From positions 14,781-78,780 of the forward strand of contig PCYM01000002.1 in NCBI GenBank assembly GCA_002774875.1: 64,000 nucleotides of DNA. The letters are read 5' to 3'. How positions within the stretch are numbered: the first letter of the stretch is position 1; each line of letters opens with the position of its first letter. Shown piece by piece: positions 2,448 through 51,156 of the stretch. Made by a program: the position numbers and the translations under genes. A model generated the notes under the pieces. That model had not been told where the DNA came from, did not search any database, and worked only from the letters and a program-made list of their open reading frames with translations. This DNA comes from Candidatus Uhrbacteria bacterium CG10_big_fil_rev_8_21_14_0_10_50_16 (GTDB lineage: Bacteria > Patescibacteriota > Patescibacteriia > UBA9934 > UBA11717).

Positions 2448-3463
2448 TGTCCCCCCAAAATTTTTGCGGGGTCGGCGTCGATAATTAACGGATCCATGGC
2501 CACGCGTCCATCTACCAAAGCCCGCAAACCCGCCGCTCCAATCATCGCAGCGTTGTCCGTGGTGTATTTGATCTGCGGCACAAGCACGGAGACAGAAGTA
2601 TCGGAAAACGCTTCCATAAGTTGACGTCGCAACTCCGTGTTTGCCGATACACCTCCACACAGCATAACCGTGTTTGGTGCGTACTGTTCCGCGGCAAGCC
2701 GTGTTTTTGTCACCAGTACATCCACCACCGCCTGTTGAAACGAGGCGGCAATATCGGCAATAATCGTCGGTGTCAACTCTGCGTGTGATCGAATTTGATT
2801 ACGTACAGCCGTTTTGAGACCAGAAAATGATACATCCAAATCTCCCGAGTTGATCATGGGTCGTGGGAGCGTAATCGCCGTAGCGTCTCCGCCGAGCGCC
2901 GCCTTGGCAATACTTGGACCACCCGGATAGCTCAACCCAAGCTGTGCGGCCGTCTTATCAAAGGCCTCCCCCGCAGCATCATCTCGGGTTTGACCAAGAA
3001 AAACATACTCTCCATGGTCCTTCATGAGCACAATCTCCGTGTGCCCACCGGAGACCACGAGACAGAGAATCGGAAACGCGCTCGCCTCCACAGAGCTATC
3101 CAAAAAGTTTGCATAGATATGCCCTTCTATATGATCCACCGGGACAAGCGACACACCCCATGTGACCGCCAATGCTTTTGCCGTCTCCACGCCCACACGG
3201 AGTGCTGTTGCAAGCCCTGGTCCCGTAGTTACCGCCACCGCATCAAAATCCCCTTGCTTCCACTGCGTGAGCGCTTGGATCATTAACGGCAAAACAGGCA
3301 CATGCATACGTGCGGCAACCTCCGGCACCACGCCGCCATATTGTTGGTGCGTGGCGATCTGTGAGGAAACAAGATTCTCCACAACCACAAAAGATGTTCC
3401 GTCGCCCTCAACAATGGCGACGGCAGTTTCATCACAACTCGTTTCTATGGAGAGGATCTTCAT
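2429..3463 (-). CDS. tsaD: tRNA N6-adenosine threonylcarbamoyltransferase TsaD (Kae1/Gcp family)
   Basis: MKILSIETSCDETAVAIV... and His/Gly-rich metal-site motifs typical of TsaD; 344 aa. Confidence 0.85.
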   Translation of the reverse strand: MKILSIETSCDETAVAIVEGDGTSFVVVENLVSSQIATHQQYGGVVPEVAARMHVPVLPLMIQALTQWKQGDFDAVAVTTGPGLATALRVGVETAKALAVTWGVSLVPVDHIEGHIYANFLDSSVEASAFPILCLVVSGGHTEIVLMKDHGEYVFLGQTRDDAAGEAFDKTAAQLGLSYPGGPSIAKAALGGDATAITLPRPMINSGDLDVSFSGLKTAVRNQIRSHAELTPTIIADIAASFQQAVVDVLVTKTRLAAEQYAPNTVMLCGGVSANTELRRQLMEAFSDTSVSVLVPQIKYTTDNAAMIGAAGLRALVDGRVAMDPLIIDADPAKILGGQWKWEL

Positions 3464-3477
3464 GCGCCGTTTTTACC

Positions 3478-4464
3478 TTATCCTCGCCAAATTGTAAACC
3501 CAAGATACACAACATAGGCGATTGTAAACAAGGCGCCTTCCCATCGACTCAATTCGCCCGTCCGTTTTTGATTGATCATGAATGGAAACAGTATTGCTGT
3601 TGCCGCAAACGCCAAGAAGACATCAATCAGACCACCTGGGAAAACAGGAACCGGCAATATAATCGCCGTGACGCCCAAGATCCAAAGTGTGTTAAAGGTG
3701 ACCGACCCAACAATGTTCCCAATCGCCATGTCCGTTTGTCCACGGTATGCCGCCATCATGGTTGCAGCAATTTCAGGGAGGGACGTTCCGGCAGCAACGA
3801 TGGTAAGAGAAATAAATGCCTGGCTAAACCCAAGCGAGAGCGCCAAAGCACTTGCACTTTCTACGATCAATTCACCACCCAAAATCAATCCAACAAGTCC
3901 TCCAACAATCATGGCAATCGATACTCCCGTCCGTTGTTTTACAACAAAAATAAGATCCTTATCTTTTTTACTCTCACGCCTCTTAACCAACATAGGTTTA
4001 ATCGTGAAGTACAAAAATACAAAAAAGAATGCAATGAGTGCAATGCCTTCTCCACGCGAGAGAATATTTTCCGTTCCCGAGAGAGGACCATCCACCATCA
4101 GCGCAAACAACACACCAGCTCCCAAAATCGCAAACGGAATCTCACGCCAGACCGCAGAGCGTGCTACCACCAATGGTCGCACAAGTGCCGCAAGCCCCAA
4201 CCCCAGCAAAATATTTGCAAGGTTGGAGCCGATCACGTTTCCAAAGGCAATATCCGGATTGCCACCTGCGGCCGCGAACATATTAACTGCCAGCTCAGGA
4301 GCTGAGGAGCCAAAGGCAACAACCGTGAGTCCAATAAATAGGTTCGAGAAACCAAAACGCTTGGCAATCGACGATGCACCCTTTACCAGCTGATCTGCGC
4401 CCACAATGAGAGCAAAGAATCCTGCTAACAAAATAATGATTTGAAAAAACATGTATGAATACAC
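3478..4464 (-). CDS. Ca2+/cation antiporter, CaCA family (YrbG-like Na+/Ca2+ exchanger)
   Basis: Two alpha-repeat motifs (GSSAPELAV..., GTSLPEIAAT...) in a polytopic membrane protein, 328 aa. Confidence 0.75.
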   Translation of the reverse strand: MYSYMFFQIIILLAGFFALIVGADQLVKGASSIAKRFGFSNLFIGLTVVAFGSSAPELAVNMFAAAGGNPDIAFGNVIGSNLANILLGLGLAALVRPLVVARSAVWREIPFAILGAGVLFALMVDGPLSGTENILSRGEGIALIAFFFVFLYFTIKPMLVKRRESKKDKDLIFVVKQRTGVSIAMIVGGLVGLILGGELIVESASALALSLGFSQAFISLTIVAAGTSLPEIAATMMAAYRGQTDMAIGNIVGSVTFNTLWILGVTAIILPVPVFPGGLIDVFLAFAATAILFPFMINQKRTGELSRWEGALFTIAYVVYLGFTIWRG

Positions 4465-4600
4465 AAATAATAGTGATTCAAGTATAGCACCTCCCTCTTG
4501 ACAAAACGTCCACAGTGTCGTAGGTTATCCTCTCGCCTTGAGCGAGAAAAAACGGACACATCATCCTTAGAAATAAGGATCAACTGCGAGGAGGATCGAG

Positions 4601-6259
4601 ATGAACGTAGGACGGCTTTTGATGGCCTGTCTGCTGGTGGTGGCCATGAGCGCCTCCGCTTTCGGACAGGATTCGCTCACTCTGGTGCTCGTGGGTCAGC
4701 CGCGAGAGCCGCAGATGGTGCCCAAGGTCGTGAAGGCCTTTACCCGCGCAACGGGTGGTGGCGTGACGCCCACGTCCGCTGAGACCGCTCTGCCCAACCG
4801 GCAGGTGATGGAAGCTTGTGTGGACACGAACGCAGACTCCGTCTGTGAGAACATGGGCGTCAACACGCTCTACCGTCAGCCGGGCAACCTTCTGCTGGTG
4901 AGCGGTGCGGACCCCGAGTTTCACCCGTGCACGGATCGTGGATCCTACACCGCCATGGAGGCAGAGGACCAGTTCGTCGCCAACAGTCGTGGTGCGAGCA
5001 TCATCGATCAGATGGATGCACTCGCGTACGGAAAGGCTGCAACGGCGCTAATGACGCTCGGAGAGGTTAGCCTCCCTTGCCTCAACGAACGGTTGGAGGA
5101 AGAAACGTTCTGGCGGTATAACTTCGTGGCTGGGTATCTGGCCTACGAGACTGCCAACAACCACTCCGCCGGCATCGATGCCGCGCGGCCGTTCTTTCTG
5201 AACGCCCTCCACACATCTCCGGGTCACACCTGGGACGCCGACTACCCGCCGGCGGCACAGACCGCCTATGCCGAGGCCAAGGTGGCCCTGGTGAAGGAGG
5301 AAATAGGGGAGGTGAACCACGACGCCATGCGAGTGGTGACCCTCGGGGCGTTCGACGCTCTGACGGTAGACACCCAATCCTACGCCGAGGGGATGCACCT
5401 GCACCCCGGCCTGCACCTGCTCCAGTGGAAGTTCCAGGGTATGGAGTACACGCGTGTGTTCAGCGTCCCTGAGGGCGGCGTTGACCAGGTCCTTCTGCTC
5501 GTGGATGGCGCGAGCTGGGCGCAGGCCTTGCTCACCTTCCCCGAACAGCGCTCCCAGGCGCAACGTCTGGTGGTGGCCACAACTCTCAGCCTCATGACCC
5601 GCAACGGTCAGCGGTCGATGGGTGTCGTGGATCTTGCGCAGGACCCTCCACTGGGGCTTCTGTACAAAGCGGATGGCGAAGGCGTGCCACTCCCCGTGGA
5701 TCTGCCGACCTACACCGCCGCTGTAGAGGAGGGCGATGATGATGACGGTCCGGTCCGCCGGCCTCACGTGGAACCGTTCCAGACGGTGGACACCACGCCG
5801 GGTCAACTGGCGCTGGTGGCAGGCGGTGGGTTCAAGGGCTTCGGCCCGGCCACCTACGCCAGCGTCCACCTGGCGCTCGATGCCCACATCCGCAACGGCT
5901 TCGGCGTGGCCATTCAGGGCAACCTGGGGCTCACGTCCGTCTCCCTCCCGGATGGCACCAATGTCCTCGGAGACCTGGTCTCCCTAGGGCTGGGTGTGTG
6001 GTACCGGTTCTGGTCGCCGGTGGGGGTTCGCCCTCTCCTGCTACTAGATCTACTGCTGGACATCAACAGCTACGGCGTCAGTGCCCCCATCCCGCTCCCC
6101 TCCCTCACGGGCGGCGGCGGCGTGGAGGTGCTCCTGCCCGACTCCCGCTTCCGCGTCCGATTCGTCGGCTACGTGGGTGGTGGGTGGGATGGCACCACGA
6201 GTCGACCGCGCTACGGAGCCACGTCGGCTCTGGTGATGGAGCTGCGCCCGGCTCCCTAG
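4601..6259 (+). CDS. High-GC secreted hypothetical protein (552 aa, signal peptide, Cys-rich N-half, Gly-rich beta-like C-half)
   Basis: ORF track; GAGGAGG SD 7 nt upstream of ATG; GC ~65% with GC3 near saturation against ~48% flanks; shadow ORFs on other frames. Confidence 0.6.
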   Translation: MNVGRLLMACLLVVAMSASAFGQDSLTLVLVGQPREPQMVPKVVKAFTRATGGGVTPTSAETALPNRQVMEACVDTNADSVCENMGVNTLYRQPGNLLLVSGADPEFHPCTDRGSYTAMEAEDQFVANSRGASIIDQMDALAYGKAATALMTLGEVSLPCLNERLEEETFWRYNFVAGYLAYETANNHSAGIDAARPFFLNALHTSPGHTWDADYPPAAQTAYAEAKVALVKEEIGEVNHDAMRVVTLGAFDALTVDTQSYAEGMHLHPGLHLLQWKFQGMEYTRVFSVPEGGVDQVLLLVDGASWAQALLTFPEQRSQAQRLVVATTLSLMTRNGQRSMGVVDLAQDPPLGLLYKADGEGVPLPVDLPTYTAAVEEGDDDDGPVRRPHVEPFQTVDTTPGQLALVAGGGFKGFGPATYASVHLALDAHIRNGFGVAIQGNLGLTSVSLPDGTNVLGDLVSLGLGVWYRFWSPVGVRPLLLLDLLLDINSYGVSAPIPLPSLTGGGGVEVLLPDSRFRVRFVGYVGGGWDGTTSRPRYGATSALVMELRPAP

Positions 6260-8072: not shown

Positions 8073-8255
8073 TGCCTACAATATAGCCTAAACTGTTACG
8101 AAAGTCACAGCATGGCATAAAAATCTACCAAAGCACTGACCCCGTTGTCAGCGAGCTTTGGTAGGTCGTATGTCGAAAGGCATGCGTTGGGAGTAATCCC
8201 ACGAGCTGGCAGCGGGTTTTGTGCTGTCCGCTCGAATAAATCCTACCAAAGCGCT

Positions 8256-24184: not shown

Positions 24185-25666
<1,482 letters not shown>

Positions 25667-28989: not shown

Positions 28990-29300
28990 ATAGGTAGTCC
29001 TTTTACAACAACAAAATCAATGACTCGAGAAGTAGTACTCTTATTACTCCCTGCAAAGCGAATCCGGGATGGTGGAAGCCGGATCATAGAATAAGAAGAA
29101 ATTGGACTCGATGAGATGACGCGTGCTTTTGTGCGTGTCCGGCATCCCCCGTAACCTTGGGATAATGTGTATCTACGGAGCACATGAAAGAGCCTTCTTT
29201 TTTTAGAAGGAATTGAGGTGGTACCGCGGTGGTGGAGAACCCCCGTCCTCAGACAACGTCTTGTTGTCTTTGGGCGGGGGTTTTTTGCCCCACGCAAGGA
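28990..29300 (+). promoter_or_regulatory. T-box riboswitch leader with intrinsic terminator
   Basis: Canonical T-box sequence AATTGAGGTGGTACCGCGGTG at ~29205-29225 (17/19 to AAUUAGGGUGGUACCGCGG); ~300-nt leader; terminator ccccc gtcc...gggcggggg + T6 at ~29242-29290 just before the SD of the downstream operon. Confidence 0.65.
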
Positions 29301-43795: not shown

Positions 43796-44362
43796 ATGCG
43801 CCTGTTCGGACTTTCTGACTGTTACGATGCGATGGATCTGTACGTCTGCATCAACGGCAAGCACGTGCTCCTGTCCCGGTCGGAGGGGTGGGTGTCTGCC
43901 CGTGTGAAGCCGTGTGACAAGAGCTGTGTTCCCACGGAGATTGATCTGGAGGTGTGGCTGCAGAAGGCACCGCGGAAGGTCCGCAAGGATCCTCGGCTGC
44001 TCGCGTTCGTGGAGCAAGGAGTGCCCGCGTACACGGTGCACCGTTCCTTCGCCAAGCGCTCCGGCGGCAGCGAGACGGTCTGGATCGGCAACCTGGCGAT
44101 CACGTGGAGCTTTTGCGACGCGTCGCGGTTGAGCCAGCGGGACCGGTGGCGAGACCGCTTTGAGATCTGCCCCATCGGGGAGAATGATCTGCTGTGGTGG
44201 ATCCGCGACGTCCTCCCGTCCTCAAGACGGCTCGAAGACGTTGCCGAGGAGATCCGTCGCAATGACGATCTGCTCCTGAGCGAGCTCCGGCAGCGCGGCA
44301 CTCCGGACGCAAACACCCTGGACGCGGATGCCTTCCGGCAGTTTCTCTTGAACCTGCTGTAA
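43796..44362 (+). CDS. High-GC hypothetical protein (189 aa)
   Basis: Start at MRLFGLSD with GGAGG SD supplied by the leader module; terminator gccaaaatccc...gggatttggc+T7 at ~44400-44460. Confidence 0.5.
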   Translation: MRLFGLSDCYDAMDLYVCINGKHVLLSRSEGWVSARVKPCDKSCVPTEIDLEVWLQKAPRKVRKDPRLLAFVEQGVPAYTVHRSFAKRSGGSETVWIGNLAITWSFCDASRLSQRDRWRDRFEICPIGENDLLWWIRDVLPSSRRLEDVAEEIRRNDDLLLSELRQRGTPDANTLDADAFRQFLLNLL

Positions 44363-44592
44363 GAAGACGATCGTGCTCCCCAGCTCCCCGGTTCTCGGGT
44401 TGAGCCAAAATCCCTACGTCAATCCCATCTGTTCTTCTGGTGGGATTTGGCTTTTTTTGCTACATTTCTATTTAATTTTCATCGCCCAACAAACCTAGGG
44501 CGGCGGCATTTATTTATAAACAATACGACCTGAGACTTGATTATCTTATTTTTCTTTTAGGCTAAAATTAGCCATTTTTCCATGGTCACCTC

Positions 44593-44621
44593 TTGACAAA
44601 AGGTGTTTTTTATGGTATAAG
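44593..44621 (+). promoter_or_regulatory. Sigma70-like promoter TTGACA-N17-TATAAG in AT-rich spacer driving the next high-GC ORF
   Basis: Read directly. Confidence 0.5.
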
Positions 44622-44761
44622 ATTGTTACGCCAAAGGTGGAATAGGTTCACCTAACGCGCAGACGATCCGGAACGCTGATTCATACAGCATTCTGAAAGA
44701 CGATAACGGATCGGTCTCGTGCAAGCGAGATACCTATGAACGGGGCTTACCACCCCACGGA

Positions 44762-45460
44762 GTGATGATGGAAAAGGAAACCAACGTCATGGTGCGCCTC
44801 CCGGCGCGAGAATGGGAAATCCTCATCAAGGAGGTCCTCGCCGCAGAGGCAGATCTCCCCTCGTGGGAGTGGTGCAGAACAAGCGGAGCCCCCCGCGAGG
44901 AGGAGGGGCGGCGGCGCGATGCCGCCAGGACCGCTCTGAGGGTGGCCATGGGTCGCTCACCGGCCAACGAGAGGATGGAGGACCGTCTGGCCAACAAGGC
45001 CGGGTGCGTCCTCCTCGTGGACGGCCGGTTTGAGATCGGGGGCTCCGTTGGGGAGCGCAAGCTCCTGATCAACGGCCGAATCCGGGCCACCCTCCGCCTG
45101 GGGGGCCGTCTGGACGGCCGCGTGGATGTCGTCACCCGGGAGGCGGCCGAGGCCGCCTACCAGGAGCGACGACAGGCCTCCCGCCACGCCGAGGCCGCCT
45201 ACAAGGCGGCCCGGCAGGAGCTCATCCACGAGCTCCTGCAGGCGGACCTGGCCGAGCCCGCCGACTTCGGTCGGTGGACATACGCCTACGGGCAGTTCGG
45301 TGGGTATTTCTACCGAACGGGGGTGAGCGGCCCCCGCGTCGCCGCCAACTCCGCCTTCGTGGCGGCGTTCGGCCGCGACTGGAGGAAGACCGCCAACGAT
45401 CGGCGTTGCGAGAAGATCGAGCTCGAGCTCGATCGTCGGCTCTACGGCGCCCGCTACTAG
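44762..45460 (+). CDS. High-GC hypothetical protein (232 aa, Arg/Ala/Glu-rich)
   Basis: GGAG SD then ATGATG; GC3-saturated; followed by a terminator-like hairpin + T-run at ~45517-45575. Confidence 0.5.
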   Translation: MMMEKETNVMVRLPAREWEILIKEVLAAEADLPSWEWCRTSGAPREEEGRRRDAARTALRVAMGRSPANERMEDRLANKAGCVLLVDGRFEIGGSVGERKLLINGRIRATLRLGGRLDGRVDVVTREAAEAAYQERRQASRHAEAAYKAARQELIHELLQADLAEPADFGRWTYAYGQFGGYFYRTGVSGPRVAANSAFVAAFGRDWRKTANDRRCEKIELELDRRLYGARY

Positions 45461-45950
45461 CCCCCCAAAAAAATCCTGAGCAAGCAGGAACCCTTCGGAG
45501 CACATGTCTTGCTACATGTCTCCACCTACGCCCCGAACCACCCCCGTGCAAAATCACGGTCTGGAGGTCCGGGGTTTTGCGTTTTAAAATAGCTGTCTCT
45601 CTTAAACACCCGCATTTTTTTAACATGTTTTCCTGCGTGAGGAGATGCGACGGGTGAAGAAGATGAGATACATCTGACCGCCCAACCAAGAACCGACCCC
45701 CATCGATACGTCGATGAAGGGCGACGTCACTCGGTGGGCGGTTCTTGTTTTTGTTCGTCTCGCAGTAAACATCATTGATACGCCAGGCGAATATTTGAGA
45801 GGATAGTGATATAGGTTGAGTATTTCTACCAGGTGATCACTAATGACTTATGCCGTAGAATTATCCTCTACATCTCGATAAGCACGCATTGCCCTTTTTT
45901 CAGTACTTTGCTAAGTTACATACATGAGTAAGTAGATTTTATTTCCCCAA

Positions 45951-46757
45951 GTGAGCATAATCCCCTATCTTATGAGTGAGCTCAACACAATCAAAACGGC
46001 GCTACAACACCTGCATGCAAGCCCGAACGCCATTTCGTTCTTTCTAACGAGCTACAAGCTGAGTCGTTCTTCCGTTGGACTGATTGCCAAGACCGCCAAG
46101 ATGGATAGGTCTTCGGCATACATCGCCTACGAGCAACTCAAAGAGCTAGGTCTCATGGAGGAGGAGACGGTTGGCAGACGAAAGGTGGTTTGGACACGCG
46201 AACCAAAGGCCGTCATTGCTCGTCTACGCACCGAGATCCGCCGCATGCGAAGGCAGGTAGAGTCTATCGAAGAAGCAATGCCGGAACTCCTCGCACAGTA
46301 TGGCAGTCGTAATGACCGCCCCGTTCTGCAAGTATTTACTGGAAACGACGGTCTCCATCAGATAAAGAACGATATCTTGTCGGGCTCGGGCTTTGAGCTT
46401 CTCCTCATGTCCAACTTCCGTGAGGAGGCTGAGGTTTTTTCACGAGAGGAGCATGACAGCTTTATTCAACAGCGACTCTCGCAAAACATCACACTGCGTC
46501 TCATTGCGACAGACTCTCTCGAGGCACGCAAGATCCAAAGCTCCGATGCAAAAAATCATCGTGAAACTCTTGTAATAGAAGGTGATGCCCCATTTAATAA
46601 TGAAACCTACATCTACGGCAATAAGGTCGCGATGCTCTCATTCAATGAGCAAACTGGCGTTATTGGCTTTATTATTCAGTCAAAGGAGTTTGCAGATGCG
46701 CAGCGCTGGATGTTTGAGCAGATTTGGAAACAATTAAATACAAGTAACAAGACTTGA
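45951..46757 (+). CDS. TrmB-family transcriptional regulator, paralogue of 39858..40619
   Basis: C-terminal IYGNKVAMLSF...GFIIQSKEFADAQRWMFEQIW parallels IYGDRVVFTSF...AIIIQSEMFSQTARVMFEAAW of the first copy; start may be Met 45972. Confidence 0.55.
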   Translation: MSIIPYLMSELNTIKTALQHLHASPNAISFFLTSYKLSRSSVGLIAKTAKMDRSSAYIAYEQLKELGLMEEETVGRRKVVWTREPKAVIARLRTEIRRMRRQVESIEEAMPELLAQYGSRNDRPVLQVFTGNDGLHQIKNDILSGSGFELLLMSNFREEAEVFSREEHDSFIQQRLSQNITLRLIATDSLEARKIQSSDAKNHRETLVIEGDAPFNNETYIYGNKVAMLSFNEQTGVIGFIIQSKEFADAQRWMFEQIWKQLNTSNKT

Positions 46758-46794
46758 TAGCAGCTCACAACCGTTATCAAGGGACTATTAATCT

Positions 46795-47547
46795 ATGCAG
46801 ATCATTGTAAATAACCTTGATACGGAATATACGGATAACGGAGCAGGCGCAACAATCCTCTTGCTACACGGTTGGGGTACAAATGCGCGTTCGTTCAGCT
46901 CACTCACAAATATCCTAAGCTCCAACAATAGGTGCATATCTCTTTCTTTGCCCGGTTTCGGAAAGAGCGAGAACCCTCCTAAGGCATGGGCAGTTGAGGA
47001 CTACGCTGCGTTTGTTCGTCAGTTTCTAATAAAGCTCGACATAGACAATCCAGATGTCCTTATTGGACATTCATTTGGTGGTAGGATCGCCGTTAAGGCA
47101 GTTGCAACGCTCAAAATCTCTCCCAAGAAACTAGTGTTAATTGCTTCTGCTGGATTGGCAGAGGAGACCAAGCACGCATACTTGGCAACGGGAATCATAA
47201 AGATCGGAAAGATCGTCACTTCGATCCCGCCTTTTTCGATTGCACGAAATACGTTGAAGCGCGTAATGCGACGCGCACGTGCAAGCAAGGACTATACGGA
47301 AGCCGGTGCGCTCAAAGACACGTTCGTTAATGTAGTCAATGAACATCTTGGAACAGATGCAAAGAAAGTACGTACTCCAACGTTGCTTATTTGGGGTAAG
47401 GAGGACGCCGAAACACCACTTACAGAGGCAAACGCCTTCAAGCAGAGTATCCCCAACTCTGAGCTTTGCATTATTCCAAACGCCGGTCATTTTGTCTTTC
47501 AGGAACAGTCCCGTACCGTCGCAAGAGCCATAAAACATTTCCTATGA
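46795..47547 (+). CDS. Alpha/beta-fold hydrolase
   Basis: HGWG oxyanion region and nucleophile elbow GHSFGG. Confidence 0.7.
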   Translation: MQIIVNNLDTEYTDNGAGATILLLHGWGTNARSFSSLTNILSSNNRCISLSLPGFGKSENPPKAWAVEDYAAFVRQFLIKLDIDNPDVLIGHSFGGRIAVKAVATLKISPKKLVLIASAGLAEETKHAYLATGIIKIGKIVTSIPPFSIARNTLKRVMRRARASKDYTEAGALKDTFVNVVNEHLGTDAKKVRTPTLLIWGKEDAETPLTEANAFKQSIPNSELCIIPNAGHFVFQEQSRTVARAIKHFL

Positions 47548-48974
47548 CTACCTCTTTTCTATCTCGCTATCGTCCTCGATTCTTACGCTCACTCGTATAC
47601 ATGCTCCAAGCCACGGAATACAACATTGGTGATTACATCAACTGGCTCCACCGAACGCGTGACTTTAGTAAGGTCGAGAAGCGCAAGCAACTTAAGCAAT
47701 CGCACAAAGCGCTTGCTCTCCTGTACCTTGGCAGACTTCTTTGGCTCGCGCTCATACTGTTAGGCACTTCTCTTTCTGTTTATGGGTCAGCTATTGCTAC
47801 AAAACTCTTAGGCATCCTCGTACTCATGCTGTCTCCGTTTCTATTGGCGTACATAATCACGATCCCCCTATTTATTCTCAAACTATTTGTACAAAAACCC
47901 ATCGAAGCACTCATAATCTGGCGTGCGACGCAAACAATGGCACGTCACAAAGGGGTAAAAATTGCTATTGCTGGTAGTTACGGAAAAACATCCATGAGAG
48001 AAATGCTCCACACCGTTTTGTCTGAGGGTAAGCACGTTGCAGCCCCTCCACATAGTTACAACACGCCGCTAGGCGTTAGCGCTTTTGTTAAAACACTCAA
48101 AGGAGATGAGAAAGTGTTGATCTTTGAGCTGGGAGAATACTACCCGGGTGATGTAGCAAAGCTTTGCAAGATCGTGCAACCCGACATCGGGGTCATTACT
48201 GGAATCAATGAGGCACACCTGCAGAAATTTAAAACATTAAAGCAAACCGCCAAAACGATCTTTGAGTTAGCCGAGGCGTTACCATCGCAACCAGTTTATA
48301 TAAATGGAGAGAGTCAAATTGCGTGCACATATGCAAAAGAATCTCACATCCTTTATGACCAAAATGGAATTGGGAGCTGGCACGTACATAATCCAGCAAC
48401 AGACCTATCGGGCACATCTTTCACGCTCACAAAGGATGACCAACAGATCAAGCTCAAATCAAAACTTCTCGGCATGCATCAGATTGGTCCATTAGTCGCG
48501 GCAGTCGACATCGCTCACAAGCTCGGCCTAACAAACGAACACATTCAGTCCGGCGTTGCCAATACAAAACCATTTGAGCATCGCCTCGAACCAAGAGTTG
48601 ATGAAAGCGGTATTACAACGCTTGACGACAGCTATAACGGTAACCCCGACGGAGTACGTGTCGTCATCGACTTTCTTAAAACCCTCAAGGGTCGTCGATT
48701 CTATGTAACGCCCGGGCTCGTGGAGATGGGCTCGCGCTCAAAAGAGGTTCACATGAAGATTGGCCATCAGCTCGCTAGCGCGAAGATAGAGCGCGTCGTA
48801 CTAATAAGCAACTCTGTCACCCCCTATATTGAGCAAGGGTTGCGAGAAGCCAACTACAAGGGAGAAATTATTTGGTTCGATGATGCTCTCAAAGCCTACG
48901 CAACCTTGCCTAGCATGACCGTGAAGGGCGACATTATTCTTCTTCAAAACGATTGGCCCGATCAATATGCCTAA
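47544..48974 (+). CDS. murF: UDP-N-acetylmuramoyl-tripeptide--D-alanyl-D-alanine ligase MurF with N-terminal membrane extension
   Basis: Mur ligase P-loop IAGSYGKTS and C-terminal Mur ligase domain; ATGA overlap with the upstream gene. Confidence 0.75.
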   Translation: MTTSFLSRYRPRFLRSLVYMLQATEYNIGDYINWLHRTRDFSKVEKRKQLKQSHKALALLYLGRLLWLALILLGTSLSVYGSAIATKLLGILVLMLSPFLLAYIITIPLFILKLFVQKPIEALIIWRATQTMARHKGVKIAIAGSYGKTSMREMLHTVLSEGKHVAAPPHSYNTPLGVSAFVKTLKGDEKVLIFELGEYYPGDVAKLCKIVQPDIGVITGINEAHLQKFKTLKQTAKTIFELAEALPSQPVYINGESQIACTYAKESHILYDQNGIGSWHVHNPATDLSGTSFTLTKDDQQIKLKSKLLGMHQIGPLVAAVDIAHKLGLTNEHIQSGVANTKPFEHRLEPRVDESGITTLDDSYNGNPDGVRVVIDFLKTLKGRRFYVTPGLVEMGSRSKEVHMKIGHQLASAKIERVVLISNSVTPYIEQGLREANYKGEIIWFDDALKAYATLPSMTVKGDIILLQNDWPDQYA

Positions 48975-50112
48975 CAAGAAAACAATCGCAGTAATCTTTG
49001 GTGGGAAAAGTGCCGAGCATGACGTCTCTATTATCACGGCCCACACGCCCATCATCCAGTCACTTGTTGCTATGGGCAAGTACAACATCCTACCTATCTA
49101 TGTTACAAAGGACGGTGATTGGTATTCCGATGAAGCAATGAACGATATGGCTTACTTTAGGAAAGGTGGTATTGAAGGCAAGCTCAAGAAATTAAAGCCT
49201 CTTCAACTGTCACTCGGGAATGCTTTGTCTATTATTTTTCCAGGCATCATCCCGAAGACTGTAAAAGTCGACATTGTATTTCCAGCTATGCACGGAACGT
49301 TCGGCGAAGATGGGAGTCTCATGGGGGTTCTGCGCATGGCAAACGTTCCGTTCGTCGGTTGCGATCTTGCCGCATCTGCCGTTGCCATGGACAAGGTATT
49401 CACCAAGCAAATTGCAGAAGCAGAAGGCATCCCAGTTGTGCCGTATGTTTGGTTTACCAAACAAGAATGGCTATCCGATATGGACGTTTGCATCAAGAAG
49501 ACCGCCGGACTAACGTGGCCACTGTTTGTAAAGCCGGTACACCTTGGCTCATCTATTGCTATTACAAAAGTAAAGAATCAAACAGAACTCAAACGCGCTA
49601 TTGAAGTCGCATTTCATTATGACGACAAAGTGCTGGTTGAGGAGAGTGTAGACAATCTCATTGAGGTCACGCTTCCAATCATGGGGAATGACCAGCCCCA
49701 GGTTGCCAGCATTGAGCGACCTTTGAACAAGACAGAGTTTTTTAACTTTGAAGACAAATATCTGTCTGGCGGGAAAAAAGGATCGGGAGGTAACAGCGCT
49801 TATAGTGAAGTCCCTGCAAAAATATCATCAGATCTTGCACACAAAGTAGAAGAGCTGGGAAAACAAGTCTATCGCGTTCTAGGATGCACGGGCACCGCAC
49901 GCGTTGACTTCCTTATTAACTCAAAGCGAGAGCACATATTCGTTAACGAGGTGAACACGCTCCCCGGGAGTCTCTACCATCACAACTGGAAGATGTCGGG
50001 TGTGTCTAATATTGATCTTGTACGCAGACTTATCGAGCTCGGAGAGGAAAAATTCCTAAGAGAATCAACAATCGTACGTGTGTTTAAATCCAACGTGTTG
50101 CACAAAGACTAA
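48967..50112 (+). CDS. ddl: D-alanine--D-alanine ligase
   Basis: ATP-grasp Ddl pattern (IAVIFGGKSAEHDVSI..., FVNEVNTLPG). Confidence 0.8.
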   Translation: MPNKKTIAVIFGGKSAEHDVSIITAHTPIIQSLVAMGKYNILPIYVTKDGDWYSDEAMNDMAYFRKGGIEGKLKKLKPLQLSLGNALSIIFPGIIPKTVKVDIVFPAMHGTFGEDGSLMGVLRMANVPFVGCDLAASAVAMDKVFTKQIAEAEGIPVVPYVWFTKQEWLSDMDVCIKKTAGLTWPLFVKPVHLGSSIAITKVKNQTELKRAIEVAFHYDDKVLVEESVDNLIEVTLPIMGNDQPQVASIERPLNKTEFFNFEDKYLSGGKKGSGGNSAYSEVPAKISSDLAHKVEELGKQVYRVLGCTGTARVDFLINSKREHIFVNEVNTLPGSLYHHNWKMSGVSNIDLVRRLIELGEEKFLRESTIVRVFKSNVLHKD

Positions 50113-50168
50113 TGGCATATGCTCTCCCACCCTGCAACGAAAAACACCCCTTTCGGGGTGCCTTTCGT

Positions 50169-50244
50169 TGGAGCGGGTAGAGGGAATCGAACCCTCATCT
50201 CAAGCTTGGAAGGCTCGCATAATAAGCCACTATACTATACCCGC
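50169..50244 (-). tRNA. tRNA-Gly (anticodon UCC)
   Basis: Reverse complement GCGGGTATAGTATAGTGGCTTATTATGCGAGCCTTCCAAGCTTGAGATGAGGGTTCGATTCCCTCTACCCGCTCCA; anticodon loop CTTCCAA; T-arm GAGGG-TTCGATT-CCCTC. Confidence 0.75.
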
Positions 50245-50475
50245 ATATTGTTTAATGTACCTTCTTCCCTCTCCCGACTTCAGCCACTTTTCTCGAATGC
50301 GACCTACTATAAAGTCAGGATGAGTTTCCGTTAGAATAACACGGAACGGCCGTTTGTGTTTTGTTGATCGATTTCTTCCGGAATTGTGCTCACTTAATCG
50401 TCGATCAAGATCTTTACACATTCCTATGTACAGAGTCCCATCAAATTCACTCACCAGCGCATAGACAGTTATCAT
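50230..50475 (-). CDS. GIY-YIG nuclease-domain protein, YhbQ/UPF0213-like (81 aa)
   Basis: ITVYALVSEFDGTLYIGMCKDLDRRLSEHNSG matches the GIY-(x10)-YIG...R...H.xG core; its last 15 nt overlap the 5' end of tRNA-Gly. Confidence 0.65.
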   Translation of the reverse strand: MITVYALVSEFDGTLYIGMCKDLDRRLSEHNSGRNRSTKHKRPFRVILTETHPDFIVGRIREKWLKSGEGRRYIKQYAGIV

Positions 50476-50508
50476 AGCTCGGATTTTGTTTTCGTAGATG
50501 TAAATCCC

Positions 50509-50587
50509 CGAACCCTCATCTCAAGCTTGGAAGCCTGCCTGCCGGCAGGCAGGGCTCGCATAATAAGCCACTATACTATACCCGCAT
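50509..50587 (-). repeat. Partial duplicate of tRNA-Gly (positions ~1-57) with a 20-nt palindromic insertion CCTGCCTGCCGGCAGGCAGG at the anticodon loop; T-arm/acceptor 3' half missing
   Basis: 59 nt identical to the intact tRNA gene at 50180-50244 apart from the insertion at 50534-50553. Confidence 0.7.
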
Positions 50588-50712
50588 GTTCTTTTTCGTA
50601 GGCAACTATAACAAATAGGTCATTTTTTTGCAAGAGTTGATCCAGTTGGCCTTACTATTCATTGTTCTTATGAGGTAACTCATCGTAGAGAGCCATTTTG
50701 CCAATCCCTCAT

Positions 50713-51156
50713 AAAAAAGTGAAACGGCAGCCTCGGATGGCCGCCGTTCACGTACGTTGACATAGATTTGGGCTTTTTACACCCTACCCGCTTGAGTAAC
50801 CAGGACCTCGCACGCCCTTTCCGATGGTCACCTAGCGTCTGCAATACCCTAAGCGCGTTTCATACAAAAGTCGCGCGCTCCACAGGTCTCTCCGTACGTG
50901 GCTGACCAACCAACGTACCCCGTGTGGACTAACTACCGCAGGTGCTTTCTCACCTCAAATGATCCTCTTTGTCCAAGGTCGGTAGTTCTTTCACCTTCAG
51001 CGCGGCGCGAGCCGTGCGCGGAAGGTGTGGTCGAAGATGTCGAGTGGGGGGGTGTAGGCGTTTGCGGAGAGAGCTTCCGCTGCCTACATACATAGATTCA
51101 TACTGTCCTCCTTCCGTTCGACCTAACCTTTATACCCTAAAATACCATTTTGTCAA
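50713..51156 (-). ncRNA. Candidate ~410-nt non-coding transcript bounded by a TTGACA-N16-TATAAA promoter (51129-51156, minus) and a 14-bp hairpin + U6 terminator (50713-50751, minus)
   Basis: No ORF with SD in either strand; strong promoter and terminator on the same strand; identity (tmRNA/RNase P/SRP/other) not established. Confidence 0.4.

Follow-up and report, generated by a model that had tools for sequence, protein, structure and literature searches.

A miniature GIY-YIG nuclease gene and a 20-nt hairpin nested in a split tRNA duplication form a candidate mobile cassette of bacterial tRNA genes

The pairing of a miniature GIY-YIG nuclease with a hairpin repeat is already known from the Ssn family (cd10448), whose single-domain enzymes of about 94 amino acids bind the NTS/SRM hairpin repeat only in single-stranded DNA and cleave immediately 5′ to it (Chenal et al. 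2025, PMC11893778). Ssn genes are flanked by NTS/SRM repeats in 71% of cases, a layout that the authors note to be insertion-sequence-like, in a paper that leaves tRNA unmentioned (PMC11893778). A second precedent is SegB of T-even phages, a GIY-YIG gene lying among tRNA genes, which cleaves inside tRNA genes at RAWTSGAAC and drives both co-conversion of flanks and tandem tRNA–nuclease repeats, the latter through microhomology shared by the 5′ end of the tRNA and the 3′ end of the nuclease gene (PMC13096335). Here we describe a locus in a 64,000-nt stretch of the genome of Candidatus Uhrbacteria bacterium CG10_big_fil_rev_8_21_14_0_10_50_16 (contig PCYM01000002.1; this whole stretch is hereafter ‘the window’), in which an 81-residue GIY-YIG nuclease gene and a perfect 20-nt palindrome (PAL, CCTGCCTGCCGGCAGGCAGG) are nested in a partial duplication of tRNA-Gly. 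We consider it about 60% probable that the locus is one copy of a ~340-bp selfish mobile cassette, made up of the GIY-YIG gene and its cognate PAL and residing in a tRNA gene; it is one ordinary member of a larger class. In the literature searched we found neither this nuclease family, nor the exact cross-phylum palindrome, whose sequence we did not find printed there, nor such nesting in partial tRNA duplications. On GIY-YIG nucleases in connection with tRNA or palindromes it gave nothing on bacteria; no paper describing PAL or its tRNA association was found, and the sister Ssn family surfaced only through the literature on REP sequences and hairpins.

The module shares with Ssn the combination of a small single-domain GIY-YIG protein (~80–95 amino acids, aa) with a GC-rich hairpin repeat that is also found elsewhere in genomes, and in both families the hairpin variants co-vary with the enzyme lineage. 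It differs in the hairpin, PAL being another sequence and a perfect 20-nt palindrome without an oriented GTCAT flank, in the C-terminal motif of the enzyme (LKSGxGR versus KKWNRAWK) and in its strict tie to tRNA genes and partial tRNA duplication. SegB shows that cleavage of tRNA genes by a GIY-YIG enzyme can give rise to tandem tRNA–nuclease repeats, although it is phage-borne and much larger, carries a DNA-binding domain, cuts double-stranded DNA and has no dedicated hairpin.

We mapped the locus with ARAGORN and Rfam for tRNA, a list of open reading frames (ORFs), a Pfam domain search and a self-comparison of the window; coordinates are those of the window and tRNA nucleotides are numbered on the intact tRNA-Gly(UCC). 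Read along the minus strand, the module runs from a promoter-like site through a PAL-split tRNA copy, a spacer, the nuclease gene and tRNA-Gly to a terminator:

50605–50633, minus strand: promoter-like site TTGCAA-17 nt-TG-TATAGT (consensus scan), ~20 nt upstream of the truncated tRNA copy
50554–50585, minus strand: truncated tRNA-Gly copy, distal segment (nt 1–32), 100% identical to the intact tRNA
50534–50553, no strand: PAL CCTGCCTGCCGGCAGGCAGG, a perfect 20-nt palindrome between nt 32 and 33, the sole copy in the window
50509–50533, minus strand: truncated copy, proximal segment (nt 33–57), 100% identical to the intact tRNA
50476–50508, minus strand: 33-nt spacer or 5′ untranslated region before the ATG, unrelated to tRNA
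50230–50475, minus strand: ORF of the 81-aa single-domain GIY-YIG nuclease (Pfam PF01541, E = 2.2e-11)
50169–50244, minus strand: intact tRNA-Gly(UCC) (ARAGORN; Rfam tRNA, 65.3 bits)
50145–50160, no strand: GC-rich hairpin and T-run directly after the tRNA 3′ end (terminator scan, inverted repeat)

The nuclease gene, the only ORF of the module between the tRNA repeats, overlaps the intact tRNA by 15 nt, such that tRNA nt 1–15 encode its last four codons and its stop, a TAG (50232–50230) at tRNA nt 13–15. In the truncated copy, tRNA nt 1–33 align with 50585–50553 and nt 33–57 with 50533–50509, leaving one C ambiguous at the PAL boundary; PAL sits at the junction of anticodon stem and loop, with neither target duplication nor deletion. 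The copy lacks the 3′ half of the T-arm and the 3′ strand of the acceptor (nt 58–76) and drew no tRNA call from ARAGORN or a permissive Rfam scan. PAL occurs once in the window against 0.01 occurrences expected by chance, and is predicted to be the dominant hairpin when the DNA is folded as a single strand. Similarity between the two tRNA copies extends ~5–9 nt upstream of tRNA position 1, and this stretch co-varies between both copies in the window and in a relative (L001, below). Much of this anatomy had been noticed in an earlier reading of the window from its letters (the sequence-only reading): the intact tRNA-Gly, the 81-aa ORF ending inside its 5′ end, the upstream repeat of nt 1–57, the perfect palindrome at the start of the anticodon loop and the missing 3′ part of the duplicate all held, and ARAGORN, proposed there for both copies, called the intact gene and not the duplicate.

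The promoter-like site is probably the ancestral tRNA-Gly promoter and would now drive the truncated copy, the nuclease gene and the tRNA, since a homologous TTGC–TATAGT leader stands directly before tRNA-Gly at an empty site (L207) and before the truncated copy in another relative (L204). The tRNA-Gly probably depends on this old promoter, through a transcript that also encodes the nuclease, and the 3′ end of the nuclease mRNA would fall within the tRNA. The hairpin and T-run at 50145–50160 look like a two-way terminator common to the converging ddl gene.

The same architecture recurs widely. A word-indexed protein search returned only two relatives of the nuclease (98% and 47% identical), while an exhaustive search yielded 3101 cluster representatives with E ≤ 0.001, of which 169 had E ≤ 1e-10; lengths were mostly 80–130 aa. 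In a set of 151 proteins (the best 150 representatives at 50% identity, plus P0002), translated PAL (CLPAGR, LPAGRQ, PACRQA and similar) appears in 20, with near-variants in many more. The translated PAL usually lies in an erroneous N-terminal extension whose first residues are translated from tRNA sequence, and C-termini often run into a tRNA; these N-terminal extensions are annotation artefacts that report the DNA context. We examined 80 metagenome loci selected by protein similarity alone with a nine-sequence alignment query. A same-strand tRNA is directly adjacent in 64 of the 80, against a chance expectation of ~0.0075 per locus; it lies downstream of the nuclease gene in 47, 21 of which have the stop codon within the tRNA, and upstream only in 17. 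The remaining 16 lack an adjacent tRNA, six of them being cut by a contig end. PAL, allowing up to two substitutions, stands beside the nuclease gene in 48 of the 80, ~30–80 nt away, and tRNA and PAL occur together in 44. Among the PAL-less loci with an adjacent tRNA that were inspected, most show, at a comparable place, either a truncated PAL or a GC hairpin of variant sequence, as in L128 and L131, where the same boundary is kept with a truncated PAL, and in the tRNA-Glu clade, whose hairpin is a 27-nt variant (CCTGCCTGCRTGACGCAGNCAGGCAGG).

Two layouts are found, one with a split 5′ fragment, the gene and the tRNA, and a mirrored one with the tRNA, the gene and a split 3′ fragment, the latter on tRNA-Leu in the cultured Algoriphagus taiwanensis (L118; JCM 19755). 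In either, the hairpin is always in the truncated copy and an intact tRNA is always retained. The two halves flanking the hairpin are contiguous in tRNA coordinates (1–22/23–39, 1–14/15–27 and −3–23/23–50; 14–64/64–85 in the mirrored form). The insertion coordinate is constant per tRNA type (14/15 in Leu; 22/23 in Arg-UCU and Lys-UUU; 55/56 in Arg-CCU and Glu, within GTTC^GA of the T-loop) and always falls in or at the edge of a cloverleaf loop. The distal junction is constant within a clade, and the proximal tRNA segment, between hairpin and gene, varies from 0 to ~30 nt. The module stands beside at least 12 other tRNA types. In a neighbour-joining tree the nucleases group largely by tRNA type, with some switches and frequent changes of tRNA-Leu isoacceptor, and the hairpin variants co-vary with the nuclease clades; the window nuclease falls outside the clade of other tRNA-Gly-associated nucleases. 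In an unrelated AT-rich genome (L003), the 47%-identical nuclease overlaps the 5′ end of tRNA-Pro(GGG) and is preceded by tRNA-Pro nt 1–31, two tandem copies of CCTGCCTGCTGCAGGCAGG and anticodon-loop bases: a different tRNA and a different genome, with the insertion point of the window and nearly the same palindrome. The WWE3 locus L059 has the same module on tRNA-Lys. Whole units of tRNA fragment, PAL, fragment and nuclease gene also form tandem arrays at 98.7–100% identity (L186, 1055–1730; L173, 1143–1745); in L186 the end of a third unit is visible upstream, and short-read assemblies may collapse such arrays. Only six family loci were found among 2.9 million viral contigs, and phages as a vehicle are unsupported given so few copies.

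PAL has a distribution of its own, which we followed with a pattern scan of one genome per species; the counts are of matches listed and are lower bounds. The palindrome is present in at least 120 genome stretches, the hosts among the listed matches being Patescibacteria, Bacteroidota, Omnitrophota, Planctomycetota, Gammaproteobacteria, Acidobacteriota and others, with cultured members in Winogradskyella, Flagellimonas, Robertkochia, Longitalea, Flavivirga and Algoriphagus. Of the 124 genome sites listed, 78 have the exact 20-mer with its CCGG centre, against a chance share of ~1/16 for its class of two-base centres, as do all 39 exact PAL sites beside nuclease genes. No conserved extension by which the hairpin could be oriented was seen in the flanks of the genome-scan sites, and PAL often caps another inverted repeat. 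L036 and L058 each contain a further, PAL-free copy of the local repeat; these filled/empty pairs show a precise insertion of ~20 nt without target duplication. With a mismatch-tolerant scan and random-site controls (an exact 16-mer version was too strict), an intact copy of the joined flanks was found within 1.5 kb of 12 of 129 PAL sites and of none of 238 random sites. In these comparisons PAL behaves as a discrete inserted unit. At L004, L010 and L048 a PAL-split tRNA fragment lies just upstream of an intact tRNA with no nuclease gene between them. In the gammaproteobacterial L061, a 3′ remnant of tRNA-Val downstream of the intact gene has a T-loop insert with PAL in its middle, and a 29-kb viral-class contig (IMGVR_UViG_3300037242_000417; L259, L269, L272) carries at least six PAL copies. 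The sequence-only reading had proposed a search for the palindrome elsewhere, having treated it as an insertion incidental to the duplicate; this 20-mer of many phyla proved to be the most conserved and most diagnostic part of the module.

Comparison of relatives at the ruvC–tRNA-Gly locus indicates movement. A related Candidatus Uhrbacteria (L001; two assemblies, L001 and L002) has the same arrangement, the same palindrome and a 98%-identical nuclease, with an unchanged intact tRNA and a decayed proximal segment in the split copy (two substitutions and one deletion). Its YebC is 85% identical to that of the window, and the cassette retains 95.6% nucleotide identity as against 76–87% in the flanks. 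Synonymous divergence (dS) between window and L001 rises from 0.136 in the nuclease gene to 0.39 in ruvC, 1.44 in yebC and 1.87 in the gene adjoining yebC. Such a gradient is the trace to be expected of a recent recombination tract centred on the cassette, and resembles the co-conversion caused by free-standing homing endonucleases. More distantly (YebC 73%), L204 has a cassette at the same ruvC–tRNA-Gly place with a 56%-identical nuclease, which ends in …AGIV inside the tRNA, and with a different hairpin, TCCGCCACGGCGGA, after tRNA nt 8. L207 (YebC 68%) has an empty site, where tRNA-Gly is immediately preceded by a promoter and leader matching the distal leader of L204. The intact tRNA-Gly itself has a single mismatch (nt 15) across the window, L001, L204 and L207. 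The comparison of presence and absence in relatives that the sequence-only reading had called for thus gave filled sites in L001 and L204 and an empty one in L207. Together with the recurrence of the module beside at least 12 other tRNA types and the lower divergence of the cassette than of its flanks, this supports its suspicion of a small mobile element.

These relatives differ from the window in other respects as well. L204 has a 3′ remnant of tRNA-Gly (GAGGG … CCCTCTACCCGCTCCA) with a ~110-nt T-loop insert downstream of the intact tRNA, at 5850–5990. Synteny between window and L001 ends precisely where tRNA-Gly does, at its 3′ terminus: the sequence beyond it in L001 (5466–5886) matches window 44421–44001 at 96.7%, and ~5.7 kb of the window (44001–50140, murF and ddl included) is not at this place in L001. 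L001 also contains, at 4243–4790, an ORF of 110 aa that matches no family and is bordered on both sides by a directly repeated, terminator-like hairpin, GGTGGCCATCCGAGGCCGCCGTTTCAC; in the window this hairpin occurs once and the ORF is missing, an indel mediated by the hairpin repeats. A gene of the 23S-rRNA-IVP family lies between yebC and ruvC in L001 and L002 and is missing from the window. The window in turn has a segment of ~255–290 nt (50767–51022) between the end of ruvC and a hairpin at 50722–50749 that is absent from L001, and in which we found no notable ORF, no Rfam match and no unusual fold (z = −1.4).

The protein is a bare catalytic domain. PF01541 covers residues 2–69 of 81 at 44.3 bits, above a cut-off of 22.6 (E = 2.2e-11). 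Across 49 homologues Y16, G18, H30 and K66 are invariant and Y5, R26 and E62 are at least 90% conserved, and the window protein has all seven. Its AlphaFold model (pLDDT 96) has the strand-strand-helix-strand-helix-helix order of the GIY-YIG fold, and with this predicted model Foldseek returned UPF0213 BH0048, Slx1 and the catalytic domain of I-TevI as best matches. The gene is under purifying selection, judging from a ratio of nonsynonymous to synonymous divergence (dN/dS) of 0.08 between window and L001. An active enzyme is likely given the conserved catalytic residues, this dN/dS and the confident UPF0213/Slx1-like fold. No NCBIfam model claims the window nuclease, and TIGR01453, the model of group I intron endonucleases, scores 20.8 bits against a cut-off of 56, over residues 3–42 only. 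Among sequences of solved structures the family profile fits UPF0213/YhbQ proteins best (BH0048, E = 3.5e-14, 56 bits; EF2693, E = 4.2e-12, 49 bits), and Slx1 joins them in fold. Slx1, a structure-specific nuclease, cuts branched and flap DNA and has extra domains and a partner protein, and we know of no hairpin or tRNA association for UPF0213.

For Ssn we used the Neisseria gonorrhoeae orthologue of ssnA (L208), flanked by CCGTCATTCCCGC…GCGGGAATC NTS repeats, in place of N. meningitidis SsnA. The family profile gives its product 46 bits, near the 56 and 49 of the UPF0213 structures, and over 68 aa the window nuclease shares 37% of its residues with this product; the pairwise E of 3e-9 on this orthologue, from a one-sequence database, lies above the E < 1e-10 to N. 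meningitidis SsnA that bounds the Ssn family. By published motif and homology criteria the nuclease family would be a sister of Ssn and UPF0213, outside Ssn itself. The earlier label ‘YhbQ-type’ is sound in that UPF0213 proteins are the closest solved structures, and incomplete in that Ssn is about equally close. By analogy, the mode of action of the family is probably that of Ssn, PAL serving as the site. No match to the published SRM pattern lies within 600 nt of the 80 homologous genes (0.5 matches expected) or near the window gene; our impression by eye that many PAL flanks resemble Ssn-type SRM hairpins was dropped, except for L018. In this Bdellovibrionales locus (3250–3537) a gene fragment of true Ssn type (44% identity to the product of N. 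gonorrhoeae ssnA) precedes a hairpin that carries PAL in its loop, which suggests cross-talk between the two nuclease/hairpin systems. The same GIY-YIG domain also lies within a 714-aa ORF of a Thermodesulfobacteriota genome (L094, 2751–4892), and protein P0052, of 655 aa, has two copies of it with a PAL-like peptide. The first ATG of ssnA in L208 (NZ_CP119142.1) is out of frame with the remainder of the gene, which may be a frameshifted pseudogene there; the plasmid collection includes 2.17-Mb N. gonorrhoeae chromosomes labelled as plasmids.

The layout is A/PAL/B′, spacer, nuclease, ABC, where ABC is the intact tRNA and A–PAL–B′ the split, truncated copy. Under the mobile-cassette reading, a circular or ends-in piece (PAL–B′–nuclease–A′) would join an intact tRNA at the A/B boundary, such that the tRNA is rebuilt with its 5′ part from the element and its 3′ part from the host, while the host’s own 5′ part and promoter are displaced upstream. 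By analogy with Ssn, the nuclease would bind the hairpin whenever replication, transcription or DNA uptake exposes it in single-stranded form, and would nick the adjacent DNA. Recombination or repair by the host would then copy the cassette, together with flanking sequence, into the homologous tRNA genes that related genomes carry, and would also yield the tandem arrays. More tentatively, PAL may be a precisely inserting mobile hairpin that crosses phyla, with the ~340-bp unit of PAL and nuclease as its autonomous, integrase-free partner that enters tRNA genes by hairpin-directed single-strand cuts and host repair, the tRNA being rebuilt; we regard this bolder reading as possible rather than probable.

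Parts of this scheme have counterparts in other mobile elements. The tRNA-targeting integrative elements (attP × attB) likewise bring a tRNA part that rebuilds the gene and leave the displaced host part as a direct repeat; they differ from the ~340-bp cassette, which has no integrase, duplicates a 5′ or a 3′ tRNA part and carries a hairpin in the repeat. We set aside an integrase-borne tRNA island for the window, where the direct repeats enclose no gene but that of the 81-aa nuclease and derive from the 5′ rather than the 3′ end of the tRNA. In fungal and sponge mitochondria, GIY-YIG ORFs insert at genes and duplicate the displaced gene end, and small GC-rich hairpins spread too. These ORFs differ in being organellar, larger and mostly directed at protein-coding targets, and we know of no fixed pairing of one hairpin with one nuclease shown for them. 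With the REP/REPIN–RAYT and IS200/IS605 elements (see PMC2817692 and PMC3116915), the module has in common a dispersed palindrome that flanks the gene of its presumed mover and is recognized as a single-stranded hairpin. Their HUH tyrosine transposases form covalent intermediates and can rejoin DNA, and REPs are lineage-specific whereas PAL is identical across phyla. A REP/RAYT or IS200/IS605 element was rejected for the window, the associated protein being GIY-YIG rather than HUH (Y1) and the module having no other ORF.

Several points weigh against the mobile-cassette reading. GIY-YIG nucleases are hydrolytic and, to our knowledge, none joins DNA, so that the insertion step has no demonstrated enzyme. 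The excised circle or its junction, the intermediate postulated above, was not seen. Duplicated tRNA segments can be as short as 12–14 nt, below the reach of ordinary RecA recombination, and the intact tRNA copy retains the presumed target site yet is spared. The window holds only one PAL and one GIY-YIG gene, and low divergence around the tRNA could partly reflect a general recombination hotspot. About 110 of the 120 listed PAL stretches have no family nuclease gene within 8 kb, and PAL could therefore be spreading on its own.

This last point leads to a looser association, in which the nuclease gene makes the tRNA duplication and PAL, an independent hairpin-seeking insertion, lands later in the spare fragment. 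We think such a coincidence of two phenomena unlikely, if deserving of some weight. It would account for the many solo PAL sites, for their frequent place at the apex of other inverted repeats, for the clean filled/empty pairs of L036 and L058 and for the PAL-bearing tRNA fragments of L004, L010 and L048 that lack an intervening nuclease gene. Survivorship alone would confine PAL to the spare copy, hits in an essential intact tRNA being lethal, and the spare fragment still forms stem-loops while free of selection. The regularity of the module argues otherwise: a spacing of ~30–80 nt from the gene in 48 of 80 loci is too regular for secondary insertions, the tRNA coordinate is constant per nuclease clade while the proximal segment varies by 0–30 nt, the hairpin variants follow the nuclease clades, and the boundary is the same in L128 and L131, where only a truncated PAL is present. 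A resident, vertically inherited nuclease that provokes local tRNA duplication in the manner of SegB, with no cassette movement, would suit the tandem arrays of whole units and the shared ruvC–tRNA-Gly locus of window, L001 and L204. It seems improbable in view of homologues at more than 12 tRNA types in very different bacteria, the empty site of L207, a nuclease dS of 0.14 against 1.4–1.9 for yebC and its neighbour, and the position of the window nuclease outside the other tRNA-Gly-associated clade; it also leaves unexplained a 20-nt sequence common to several phyla.

The sequence-only reading had raised a homing element or a resolved intron. A classical homing endonuclease, or the imprecisely resolved remains of a group I or archaeal-type tRNA intron, is suggested by the GIY-YIG protein, the anticodon-loop insertion in the window and the weak TIGR01453 similarity, and is nonetheless very improbable. 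The 81-aa protein has no DNA-binding domain and scores 20.8 bits where TIGR01453 demands 56, the Rfam scans returned neither an intron nor a ribozyme family, the 3′ third (nt 58–76) is missing from the split copy, other loci have the hairpin in the D-arm or T-loop rather than the anticodon loop, and the nuclease gene lies outside the split. As far as sequence analysis goes, the anatomy of the locus contradicts both ideas. We give next to no probability to an artefact of assembly or sequencing, be it a wrongly joined repeat or a palindrome resembling an adaptor. Such an origin would be in keeping with the runs of N that coincide exactly with the repeated tRNA segments in the NCBI assembly L002, and with the source being a metagenome-assembled genome. 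The same arrangement nevertheless appears with point differences in independent assemblies, in cultured isolates and long-read genomes and in hundreds of metagenome contigs, and the PAL sequence was not met in print in the literature searched.

A LOOT RNA (78 bits), a T-box leader and a 16S rRNA gene are also present in the window, within the intervals 8085–8202, 24185–25665 and 29011–29253 taken together. The 16S rRNA gene has no adjoining 23S rRNA gene, and tRNA-Ile and tRNA-Phe lie just downstream on the opposite strand.

If the locus is indeed a mobile cassette, its 81-residue enzyme and 20-base hairpin would rank among the smallest self-contained selfish DNA units, one that has colonised tRNA genes in candidate-phyla bacteria, Bacteroidota and Gammaproteobacteria and that would serve as a model for recombinase-free DNA movement by minimal nucleases. 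Were the bolder reading correct, PAL would be the smallest mobile DNA known, and the GIY-YIG fold would gain a new transposition or homing chemistry. The module also explains a recurrent annotation problem, the false N-terminal extensions of these nucleases being translated tRNA fragments and hairpins. To the hairpin-guided single-strand nucleases, a group attractive as DNA tools, it adds a sister family whose probable site is an exact 20-mer readable from genomes. The cultured Algoriphagus taiwanensis JCM 19755 has the module, which makes it experimentally tractable.

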